Assembly (NCBI RefSeq): GCF_006345805.1
Contig: NC_043012.1
Coordinates: 31,682,001 to 31,746,000, forward strand
Length of the DNA: 64,000 nucleotides
Direction of reading: 5' to 3'
DNA from: Octopus sinensis
Lineage: Eukaryota
The notes under the pieces are model-generated. The model searched no databases. It was not told where the DNA came from and saw only the letters and a program-made list of their open reading frames with translations. Shown here in pieces: positions 5,728 through 52,524 of the stretch (the stretch's first letter is position 1; the number at the start of each line of letters is the position of its first letter). The position numbers and the translations under genes were made by a program.

Positions 5728-6146
5728 TAGAGAGAGATCTTAGTATTTGATGTCATCTTACTTATCGAACCCTAAAAAATGTAAGTCAAATTCAACTACG
5801 AAGTCATTTGAATTCAGAACGGAGAGAACTGAAACAAACACTCTTCGTTTATGTTGGATGCTCTAACAACTTCGAATTTGCAACCTTACCCGACCTTATA
5901 ATATGCACCAATTTGCCACAGAAAAACAGCTCACGCATAGACCTATCACTCACTGGATAATTGCATTAATTTCTACCCTATGAATAATTCACCAGTTACA
6001 ATAGTAAACGTGTTACTATTTTGTATTTCCAGTTAGGGTTACTATTAACATATTTAACGCAGGGAACACTGAAAAGCTTAGGGGAGATAATTATGTGGTA
6101 GGAATATTAAATACTAGTTAATGCGCAATAATACTTAATTTATTTT

Positions 6147-23431: not shown

Positions 23432-25384
23432 ATATATATATATATATATATTTGATTTTGATTTTTCCAGTTTCAGCTTATGAGCTGTGGCCATGCTGGG
23501 GCACCGCCATTTGAGCAGTACTCAAATATATATATATTTCATTCATGACTAGTTCATATTCAAGATTTGCATGAGGCTTACCTAAAATATATGCATTATA
23601 AACTGCATTATGTGTAGCATTTATTATATGTGGAGTCTAAATTTATCTAACCGCCTGCCTCACATATGTGCAATGTCGTAGATGTTGTTAAGTTTCAGAA
23701 TCAGGTATATCATATTGCTGTTCATTATCGTTTCAGAACTTGGTCTACTGTTGGTATAAGAAATATATTCTACAGTATCTTTATAATTCATTGTTGCTAG
23801 TGATATTACTAAATAATAATTTTATGACGATAAAATGTCGACGGAGTACTGCTCAAATATATTTAGACATGTGCTAACGATGATGAATTTCAGTGCATCT
23901 TGACCTTTTCTTTATATTACTCTTTTTTACTTGTTTCAGCCATCCGGCTGAGGCCATGCTGGGGCACCGCCCTTATATACAAAAGATTAATTAATACCTA
24001 AATCAGAATTGACGAATTAGGCTGCAAATAAGTGAGAGTAATTACTACTTTAAAATTATGATTATTAGAAGTTACTTCTATCCTATTAAATATTATATTA
24101 AATTATATTATCTGGGAGACAAATCAAAGGTAAACTAATTTGGTTGATTAAGGATAAAAGTAAGGTGGGAAATAGTTAGCGGAGCAAAATCTTATAGCAT
24201 TGGGAACAAAAGATGTCAACTTTTCATCGAAGAAATTGACCAGATTCTTACATCAAAACGCAAATTAATCAACAGCAGGAGAGAAAGAGGACCCTATTGT
24301 ATTCATAAAATCAAATATACATTCAATAAATTTAAAGCAGATACGGTTAAAATAAACACTGTGAAAAATAACACCTATGAATAGTTCACAAAGTTAAATA
24401 TACCCTTAATAAATTTAAATAGACATCGTTAAAATAAACACCGTGTAAATAATACCCATGAAACCTGAATCTATACTATATTTTAAATAGGAAAAATATA
24501 TATATGTATGAACCCAACCTATCAAATAATACCTTTGAATAAATAATTTTATTTATTAGTAACTAATATAAGTCTTACAAATATAAATAATAGTGTTCAT
24601 ATAAAATTGATAAATAAAAAGAACTATTAGCAACATACCTAGACTTATTTATTAGGTCATCGATGGTTATGTTATGGATATGCTGAATAGTATAAATAGT
24701 AGAGGCAGGCTTGTAAACATAAATAGTTCATCACTTTGGCCAAAAGGGTGGAATAAAGACGTAGAAGAATATGTTACGGACATACTGAATAGGATGATAA
24801 GTAATGACAGGCTTGTAAATAGTTAATTGGTATTACAAAAGAAGGGGAATAGTCACATGACCTAGTTCTTCTGAACTATGCCTATCCCTTGTCCATTAAG
24901 GTCGAAAATCAACTTTTAGCTATTTTTAGAACAGAACATAAGACGCACATGCTACAATTCAATCGGAATACACTCTCCATTCGTTAGGTTGTGAAAAATG
25001 TCAGTCAATTAGGCTCTGAGGAGACTTTTTGCTTTTTCAAATTCATAATGCAGTTTAAAAGTGTAAATGTTGAATAACAGCAATCAGCCGAAACGCAGCG
25101 TAGGCAATGTGAATGAACATATTAATTTGACTGGACTGTGGTTCTACATATCCGTGCATTCTCCGTTTTCTCTGAATTTATATATATATCAATGCATGCA
25201 AGCATACATGCATCTCACATTTTATTTTATTTTACACCCACACACGCGCGCGCGCACACACACACACGCATGCACGCGCGCATACACATACACATCCTTC
25301 AGTATTTATTTTGATACACATTCTTCTGTATATTTATGAACTGAGTCACTCGCTGATCCATCCATCCCTTTATCCATTCATCCC

Positions 25385-29614: not shown

Positions 29615-29682
29615 GCCCGCGTGTGTACCGTTAGCGATTTATTTCCTCCGTCTTCCCTTCTTTGGATCTTTCCTTTTCCTAT

Positions 29683-29717
29683 GTTTCTGACGAAGAGCTC
29701 CGCTCGAAACGTTAAAT
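29683..29717 (+). ncRNA. Minimal type I hammerhead ribozyme motif in a Penelope-like terminal fragment
   Basis: GTTT-CTGACGA-A-GAGC tcc GCTC-GAAAC-GTT^AAAT; stem I GTTT/AAAT; stem III is the palindrome AACGTT. Confidence 0.65.
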
Positions 29718-29818
29718 CCTCCTTCTTTCCTGAGCGTCCAATAATACTATACTTGTTCCACATCCTCGCGTTGTTATGTTTTCTCTTTGTGTTTTCATGT
29801 TTGGATTAACCATATATA

Positions 29819-51845: not shown

Positions 51846-52145
51846 GTGTATGTATGTATGTATATAGGGTATTATAACATTCATGTATACATATGCATAT
51901 ACATATGTATTTATATACTTATACAAATATACATTAATTTATAGAGCAATAAGAAAATGGAGGGGATCAATAGGTGGTTCATCAACTTTTAGACATTATA
52001 TTATGTCAACTTATTTATTTACTAAAATGACAATTACAAGACTATACATGCATGCATAACATATGCTTTACATATAATATATATTAATATATAAAGATAC
52101 CAGTAATTATTATAAATATAACATACAGGAATATAAATTGGGAAA

Positions 52146-52281
52146 AAAATCTTACAGCTGTTTCAGCCAAGAGGCAAAAATACCTCTACCTCATTCTACA
52201 TTTATTCCTCCAGTATACTGAAGTAATAAGTAGATAAAATTGAGGTACTCGGGTGTATCTCTAAGCTTCGTCAGAGATTTT
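52146..52281 (-). ncRNA. Type I hammerhead ribozyme with 103-nt stem II
   Basis: AAAATCT-CTGACGA-AGCTTAGAG...CTCTTGGCT-GAAAC AGCT GTA^AGATTTT; perfect 7-bp stem I and all core residues intact. Confidence 0.8.
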
Positions 52282-52524
52282 ATAAAGTACATAAGGTTAA
52301 GTTATAAATAAAAATATATATAAAATAAATAAATACACGCACATTTACATCCTTATATTTATACATATACATACATATATAAATATACATAAATACTTAT
52401 ATATAATATACACATAAATGTACATACATATTTACATTTATATGTATATACAATAATTGATTATTAATATATAATTGATATATATATATATATATGTGTG
52501 TGTGTATGTGTGTGTGTGTGTGTC

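Follow-up and report, generated by a model that had tools for sequence, protein, structure and literature searches.

The closest described relatives of the ribozyme considered here are the hammerheads of Hydra-clade Penelope-like elements (PLEs). As described by Craig et al. (2021; PMC8557442), this clade joins a reverse transcriptase (RT) to a GIY-YIG endonuclease at the C terminus, with an RWK motif, a change of DKG to DKT, a CxCX5C linker, CxxC and CxH motifs, and (TA)n targets. Ragged 5' ends, fixed 3' ends, inverted partner copies, and TA junctions are given there as hallmarks of PLEs. Hydra-clade hammerheads are of type I, lie close to the element's 3' end, and have a short, near-palindromic stem III. 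In the 26 Hydra rows of File S2 of that study, stem II has 3 to 7 bp and a loop of 3 to 10 nt, at most about 24 nt in total; the octopus Hydra family listed has a stem II of 22 nt, and the elements are generally <3 kb. The metazoan PLE min-HHRs and their palindromic-helix-III variants, as presented by Cervera and de la Pena (2014; PMC4209133), likewise have a short stem I and a short palindromic stem III, are predicted to cleave as dimers, and occur as thousands of dispersed, single, truncated copies. A helix II described as "larger than usual" in that account has 6 to 8 bp. Longer stems II are tolerated in at least two described cases. PLE-X1_sMoe, with 9 bp and a 35-nt loop (53 nt), is the longest non-Hydra case in the published table (File S2, PMC8557442), and the minus-strand hammerhead of CChMVd is described as having an "unusually long helix II" (PMC3705267).

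The role of the hammerhead in PLEs is a wider question on which the length of stem II bears. The PLE hammerhead cleaves poorly alone. According to Frangieh et al. (2024; PMC11167929), protein was required in the one element tested, Poseidon PAc of the anole, in which cleavage occurs only with the element's own protein. The RNA required by that protein runs from stem II to +172, two start sites for the RT are preferred downstream, and insertion uses mostly uncut RNA.

The window, which is the whole 64,000-nucleotide stretch of Octopus sinensis DNA analyzed here, contains a type I hammerhead motif that spans 52281-52146 on the minus strand (Table 1). The core boxes CUGANGA, GAAA, and UH are all present and surround a three-way junction with its opening at stem I. 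The 7-bp stem I, core, GUA site, and 103-nt stem II of the original prediction were all found at the positions proposed for them. When the genome was scanned with a strict pattern that kept the palindrome and allowed arms of 78 to 108 nt, 1,429 exact matches were obtained, compared with 0 in the reversed control; thus, the motif is real and far above chance. A second pattern with other palindromes and arms of 42 to 72 nt had 9,388 genome matches versus 3 in its control. Rfam gave no match at gathering score anywhere in the window and no hammerhead family around the motif site at E values up to 10. More than 10,000 motifs of one animal genome therefore escape standard descriptors and Rfam.

Table 1. 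Positions of the hammerhead and of the surrounding element remnant in the window
Feature	Position	Strand	Basis or remark
Stem I, 5' strand, AAAATCT	52275..52281	minus	sequence; pairs with 52152-52146, 7 bp
Catalytic core, 5' box, CUGACGA	52268..52274	minus	sequence
Stem II rod, 103 nt (family 97 nt)	52165..52267	minus	folds and covariation
GAGGTA tandem duplication in 3' arm of rod, private	52181..52192	minus	1 of the 30 nearest copies
Catalytic core, 3' box, GAAA	52161..52164	minus	sequence
Palindromic stem III, ACAGCTGT (= ACAGCUGU)	52154..52161	minus	as monomer, 2 bp plus 4-nt loop
Predicted cleavage site, GUA^ (between 52153 and 52152)	52152..52153	minus	hammerhead consensus position
Stem I, 3' strand, AGATTTT	52146..52152	minus	30-copy comparison
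5'-truncated remnant of Hydra-clade PLE (3' UTR/pLTR end)	51932..52475	minus	BLAST against 30 loci of the same genome
(TA)n/(CA)n microsatellite at 5' junction of remnant	52476..52523	no strand	typical Hydra-clade target

When folded alone, stem II of the window copy forms a nested rod of 40 bp (-36.3 kcal/mol; z score, -5.0). From its base upward the rod consists of a 4-bp helix, a mismatch, a second helix, an asymmetric internal loop, and a long middle helix, followed by a bulge, the upper helices, and an apical loop of 4 nt. The nested hairpin that had been proposed for stem II is thus recovered, except that the apical helix has 6 bp rather than 8 bp. Similarly, the predicted stem III is a palindrome, but within a single molecule it is hardly a helix. 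The first pair of stem II is A-U in the window family and G-C or G-U in its relatives (the canonical closing pair is G10.1-C11.1), and the second pair is an invariant G-C, in columns that were partly fixed by the search pattern. Arms of this kind differ from those of the described systems. They have 85 to 109 nt in the window family and its allies and 52 to 70 nt in other families, compared with the short stems of the 26 Hydra rows, and their roughly 35 to 40 bp, interrupted by internal loops, far exceed the helix II of the metazoan min-HHRs. PLE-X1_sMoe and CChMVd are shorter and isolated examples, in which stem III is long or the loops contact each other, whereas the arms found here form a genome-wide class. 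The palindrome is even in length and perfect, the unit is 5.5 kb, and about 500 nt separate the motif from the first Met of the ORF downstream of it; in PAc, which belongs to another PLE clade, the ORF starts in stem II. A hammerhead in the end of a PLE is already known. No report of hammerhead arms of 50 to 110 nt was found in the literature searched, which mostly excluded subscription papers.

Several lines of evidence connect the motif with a Hydra-clade PLE. Copies of the family have ragged 5' ends and TA tracts at their junctions, inverted 5'-truncated partner copies are frequent, and insertion into (TA)n is seen in the flanks. Two 3' ends are preferred, one at +217 and one at about +402 to +410 from the cut, and the window remnant ends near the shorter of the two. 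Walking upstream through approximately 2 kb of AT-rich sequence led to an endonuclease remnant. At locus L122 the endonuclease remnant, a 2.1-kb UTR, and a motif 79% identical to that of the window follow one another in order on one strand; the direct link to the ORF therefore reaches a subfamily 79% alike, beyond the window's own subfamily. Two relatives found via the endonuclease remnant, L152 and L154, have near-intact frames of 749 and 760 codons, and L247, from a sister family, has the complete pLTR-ORF-pLTR layout, its two motifs lying in direct orientation 5.5 kb apart. Motif reading identified an RT followed by a GIY-YIG endonuclease at the C terminus in the frames of L247, L154, and L152 and in the remnant L148. 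The RT-endonuclease frame of L247 carries RWR, DKT, CxxC, and CxH motifs, and L116 has RWK and DKT; both loci lie outside the window's own subfamily. A CxCX5C linker and CxxC and CxH motifs around a conserved E and N, with no CCHH, were seen by eye in L122, L148, L150, and L265. Pfam found no RT or GIY-YIG match for three ORFs of the element, so the assignment to the Hydra clade rests on motif reading, with a tree of sequences from this genome rather than reference sequences. The 5.5-kb unit and the 85- to 109-nt stem II depart from the small size and short stem II that are typical of, rather than diagnostic for, the clade. We conclude that the motif is almost certainly the hammerhead of a Hydra-clade PLE. 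The RT that was expected to mobilize the hammerhead is thus identified, through the endonuclease link and the protein motifs, and the copies of the family and the layout of the element agree with the proposal of an extended-architecture hammerhead of a mobile element.

Non-LTR retrozymes, which are described as short head-to-tail tandem monomers that each contain a hammerhead and no ORF (PMC7229834; 10.64898/2026.07.22.740005), were considered and rejected because the motif has no tandem unit and its copies are dispersed singly or inverted and are joined upstream to the ORF of a PLE. Two direct copies of the window's own subfamily, both on the minus strand, lie 3 kb apart at G000:C1:56872358 and C1:56875335 and are possibly a tandem pLTR pair. 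Elsewhere in the window, positions 24148-24336 (plus strand) contain a remnant of a Hydra-type endonuclease C terminus that shares 38% identity with the protein of L154.

The window copy itself is an aged insertion. A search of the same genome with this copy returned 715 candidates, and the 39 other copies that were scored were 88 to 91% identical to it, a divergence of about 10% from its nearest relatives. Over 171 nt, 8 substitutions and the insertion of 7 bases set it apart from the family majority. The GAGGTA duplication that lengthens the arm to 103 nt is found in this copy only among the 30 nearest, so that 97 nt is taken as the arm of the family, and a 7-bp stem I is present in only 2 of the 30. 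The 3' strand of stem I is AGATATT in 12 of these 30 copies and AGTTATT in another 12. Two private changes of the window copy strengthen, in fold predictions, a competing hairpin that swallows the core, and once at least 25 bases of flank are included, the helix at the base of stem II forms with a probability of ≤0.01, versus 0.84 to 1.0 in young families. The original prediction regarded this copy as intact. An intact core and palindrome are common among aged copies, being present in 14 of 25 copies picked by similarity of the motif and in 10 of 23 copies labeled by outside anchors (a few of the latter were recovered by similarity as well). Given this and the predicted misfolding, the window copy is likely to be a dead relic, and it is the family that needs explaining. 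The core, the palindrome, and the 7-bp stem I are all intact in the window copy, as would be expected if the host had kept it as a working ribozyme. However, aged copies commonly retain intact cores, and the private changes strengthen the competing hairpin at the expense of the core. The window rod is not covered by any putative RNA contig, which by itself is no evidence either way. We regard retention by the host as extremely unlikely.

Long arms are a property of particular lineages. In an endonuclease tree of 20 rows from this genome (141 columns, long branches flagged), the families with arms of 85 to 109 nt form one clade (support, 99/98) and those with arms of 54 to 55 nt form the neighboring clade (100/98); the union of the two has support of 94/85 and is unstarred. 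The Hydra clade does not need a long arm, since the young and abundant Hydra family L116-L121, which lies outside both clades, has a stem II of 10 nt. This very young family has open frames of 727 codons (e.g., L116:1912-4092, plus strand), 11,115 candidates in a protein search, and a minimal hammerhead whose stem III, ACTCAGAGT, is of odd length. Relative to its 727-codon frame, the ORF of the long-arm clade (L154:1462-3744, plus strand; L247) has two Asn-rich insertions of about 100 to 130 residues. The rod of the window family is also covered by contigs under two further organism labels. Two motifs near ORFs were set aside as evidence of arm length for the rod clade: the 16-nt motif of L165 is not the arm of the nearby ORF, being a separate insertion between TA tracts, and the pairing of the 45-nt motif of L156 with its nearby ORF was unconfirmed.

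The long stem II is very probably selected as an RNA structure in the active master elements. Representatives of 12 clusters, whose stem II sequences are as little as 46% alike, all fold as rods (z scores, -1.3 to -5.2; 11 of 12 at -2.4 or below). For 38 sequences picked to cover the families and aligned with MAFFT without editing, 82% of the cells in 24 named pairs were paired, and two-sided changes were found in 55 cells, compared with 26.5 after shuffling and 17 or fewer in slid registers. In these 38 sequences the number of pairs with a two-sided change (10 versus 8.7) and the pair types were not above those of shuffles. A tree-aware test of a gap-corrected alignment, in which one 2-nt gap was moved by hand, gave 9.3 compensatory changes on the same branch, versus 0 to 2 in slid registers, and P values of <0.01 for 4 of 36 pairs. 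In that test no single pair was significant (best E value, 0.16 to 0.28), and none of the top 25 column pairs fell in the structure. From the MAFFT alignment, RNAalifold recovered only two rod helices, owing to a misplaced gap. The expected covariation across copies is therefore seen collectively and not in individual pairs, and pairing of the rod is conserved among paralogues, as both the folds of the 12 clusters and the compensatory changes attest. In most rows the search pattern itself dictated the columns of the core and palindrome, which therefore do not count as evidence of conservation. The middle helix is largely lost in one sublineage (L197, L205, L209, and L213). Four unconstrained rod columns are invariant, near what the tree length of 3.8 allows, and thus there is no clear recognition motif in the rod. 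An invariant bulged A (column 55) was considered as a handle for protein and rejected, being not beyond chance. We read these results as selection on pairing that is strongest near the base and in the middle, with little fixed sequence.

The palindrome suggests how the motif might cleave. As stem III, it had a monomer pairing probability of approximately 0 in all 13 copies folded, and between two RNAs it forms an 8-bp duplex (-11.1 kcal/mol). These properties fit the dimer model of PLE hammerheads as given in two sources (PMC4209133, PMC6765202). The palindrome varies by family yet stays self-complementary (ACAGCTGT, ACACGTGT, ACATATGT, and ACGTACGT), and the two direct copies that flank the ORF in a single transcript unit of L247 also fit cleavage as a dimer. 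The active monomer fold lies 4 to 13 kcal/mol above the minimum free energy in 13 of 13 copies. For the window copy, the dimer constrained to the active fold reaches -75.1 kcal/mol, versus -98.6 kcal/mol when folded freely. Motifs of the window type are predicted to cut only as dimers. The core CUG can also pair with the CAG of the palindrome (alignment A1, columns 14 to 16 with 134 to 136), giving a conserved inactive monomer fold that might be a latch against monomer cleavage.

The rod was also proposed to be a substrate for ADAR, and the young sister family with an 85-nt arm offers indirect support for this idea. Contigs of three putative RNA runs from three studies, presumed to be RNA and derived from different individuals, were compared with a DNA-type run. 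Sense-strand A>G changes at the paired rod adenosines 5793 and 5819 were found in all three putative RNA runs, and those at the paired rod adenosines 5814 and 5820 were found in two of the three; at zero depth for all four, the DNA-type run (depth, 190,000 to 430,000) did not contain them. All 23 genomic copies compared have A at the four sites. A fifth site, 5824, was rejected as an edit because it is a genomic variant in 3 of the 23 copies. Among the 40 changes listed, the four were the only A>G changes found in multiple runs and absent from DNA, and one other change, A>T at 6082, shared this pattern. Of the 136 adenosines in the stretch examined, 16 lie in the rod. No corresponding set of T>C changes was listed for the 85-nt family, suggesting that the duplex is the rod and not the long inverted repeat. 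It is likely that the rod of the sister family is edited by ADAR, given A>G changes in putative RNA runs that are absent from the DNA-type run. The rod is thus a candidate for a natural substrate of ADAR that forms part of a ribozyme. In the 3' tail of the window copy (51991-52095), one putative RNA run has eight A>G places on the plus strand, antisense to the element, that are rare in DNA-type runs; depth was low, and these may reflect editing of inverted copies.

What the long arm is for has to be considered with other PLEs in mind. The 97- to 103-nt stem II may well be a docking and folding arm for the RT-endonuclease of the element itself. By analogy with the anole element, in which cleavage depends on protein, the required RNA begins at stem II, and uncut templates serve for insertion, we favor this reading, with a tolerated insertion as a close rival. 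Several observations count against docking: the lack of any individually significant pair and of a clear recognition motif, the 10-nt stem II of L116-L121, the loss of most of the middle helix in one sublineage, the unfavorable energies of the active monomer and constrained dimer folds, and an ORF link that reaches only a subfamily 79% alike. In the mechanism that we propose, a pLTR-ORF-pLTR transcript would bring two motifs together via the 8-nt palindrome, and the RT-endonuclease would bind the arm, keep the base of stem II closed, and aid cleavage, which would release a unit-length RNA. Uncut RNA would still be the template of most insertions, with priming 220 or about 400 nt downstream. 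In two young families, at least about 90% of the listed copies extend across the cut site, consistent with uncut templates. The close rival is that loop II simply grew by slippage in an expansion-prone lineage and that nothing binds the rod, selection asking only that the extra sequence fold away and the base of stem II stay closed. Arm length ranges from 10 to 109 nt within one clade, the lineage with 85- to 109-nt arms also has long UTRs (2.0 to 2.4 kb) and the Asn-rich ORF insertions, loops and apex vary freely (the 85-nt families miss 12 nt of the apex), and few rod columns are invariant, all of which a tolerated insertion would accommodate. However, arm length does not simply track general expansion, since UTRs are shortest (about 0.6 kb) in the families with 54- to 55-nt arms. 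Furthermore, arm length is nearly fixed inside each clade, and long arms have persisted in >10,000 motifs of many families rather than being lost. We therefore hold the tolerated insertion to be possible but less probable than docking.

Action of the rod through double-stranded RNA enzymes of the host, with ADAR editing (or cutting by Drosha/Dicer) regulating folding, cleavage, or silencing, would account for the A>G changes at the four rod adenosines, and pri-miRNA hairpins resemble the rod in size and number of pairs (about 35 to 40 bp, imperfect). Yet any duplex would be expected to be edited, so that editing shows no function, and the four edits shift the fold of the rod only from -40.7 to -39.5 kcal/mol (1.2 kcal/mol) and leave the structure intact. 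The longest uninterrupted helix in the rods is 5 to 12 bp, there is no A>G excess in the rod of genomic copies (A>G, 17 of 1,508; T>C, 14 of 1,560), and the editing signal comes from contigs of presumed RNA status, with 15 further changes outside the 40 listed. This route to a function is improbable. Even less credible is an action in copying, in which the folded ribozyme and rod would stall the RT or set the site of 5' truncation or inversion. In the window family, 100 listed copies reach +42, and the ends of 58 of them fall in the 41 nt on the 3' side of the cut, whereas only 9 of the 85 listed end in the next 45 nt upstream (counted by eye). The pattern is not repeated in the 85-nt family, with 1 of 100 junctions from the cut to +9, or in the 55-nt family, with 10 of 100 from 0 to +41 versus 6 of 90 from -1 to -21. 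The 41-nt zone is also more AT-rich (79% versus 62%), which favors microhomology joins. There was no clear spike of 5' junctions at the cut site itself (1 of 100 in the 85-nt family, 2 of 100 in the 55-nt family, and 2 of 100 in the window family). Cleaved templates, stalling of the RT, and AT-driven microhomology are all possible sources of the step in the window family.

Docking could be combined with editing. Stem II would then be a family-specific docking arm, the palindrome a family barcode, and A-to-I editing of the arm a gate for RNP assembly or cleavage across the >10,000 motifs. We consider this combination speculative and improbable; if true, it would constitute a ribozyme controlled by RNA editing. 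Docking as such could be evaluated with arm swaps, because one clade in one genome provides young families with 10-, 55-, 85-, and 100-nt arms and near-intact ORFs, a setting in which a protein handle could be tested.

Other hammerheads are present in the window. A second long-arm type I hammerhead, from another family, lies at 53169-53075 on the minus strand and has a 5'-truncated duplicate at 53743-53471. It has a 61-nt stem II, the palindrome ACGTACGT, a 6-bp stem I, and a GUC site, and the arms of its relatives are 59 to 70 nt; the four loci examined gave no link of this family to an ORF. The short type described by Cervera and de la Pena (PMC4209133) is also found in the window, at 29687. 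This canonical short PLE min-HHR (29677-29720, plus strand) has an unpaired A before a 4-bp stem II and an ACGU palindrome, and the same type occurs in L086 and L117.

In two separate families, that of L154 (5858-5864) and that of the window copy (52152-52146), stem I varies to an unusual degree in its 3' strand, 3 to 5 nt past the cut, while the flanks are near-identical. In the young L154 family, the variants of this strand are AGATTTG, AGTTTTG, AGATATG, AGATGTG, AGAATTG, and AGTTATG.
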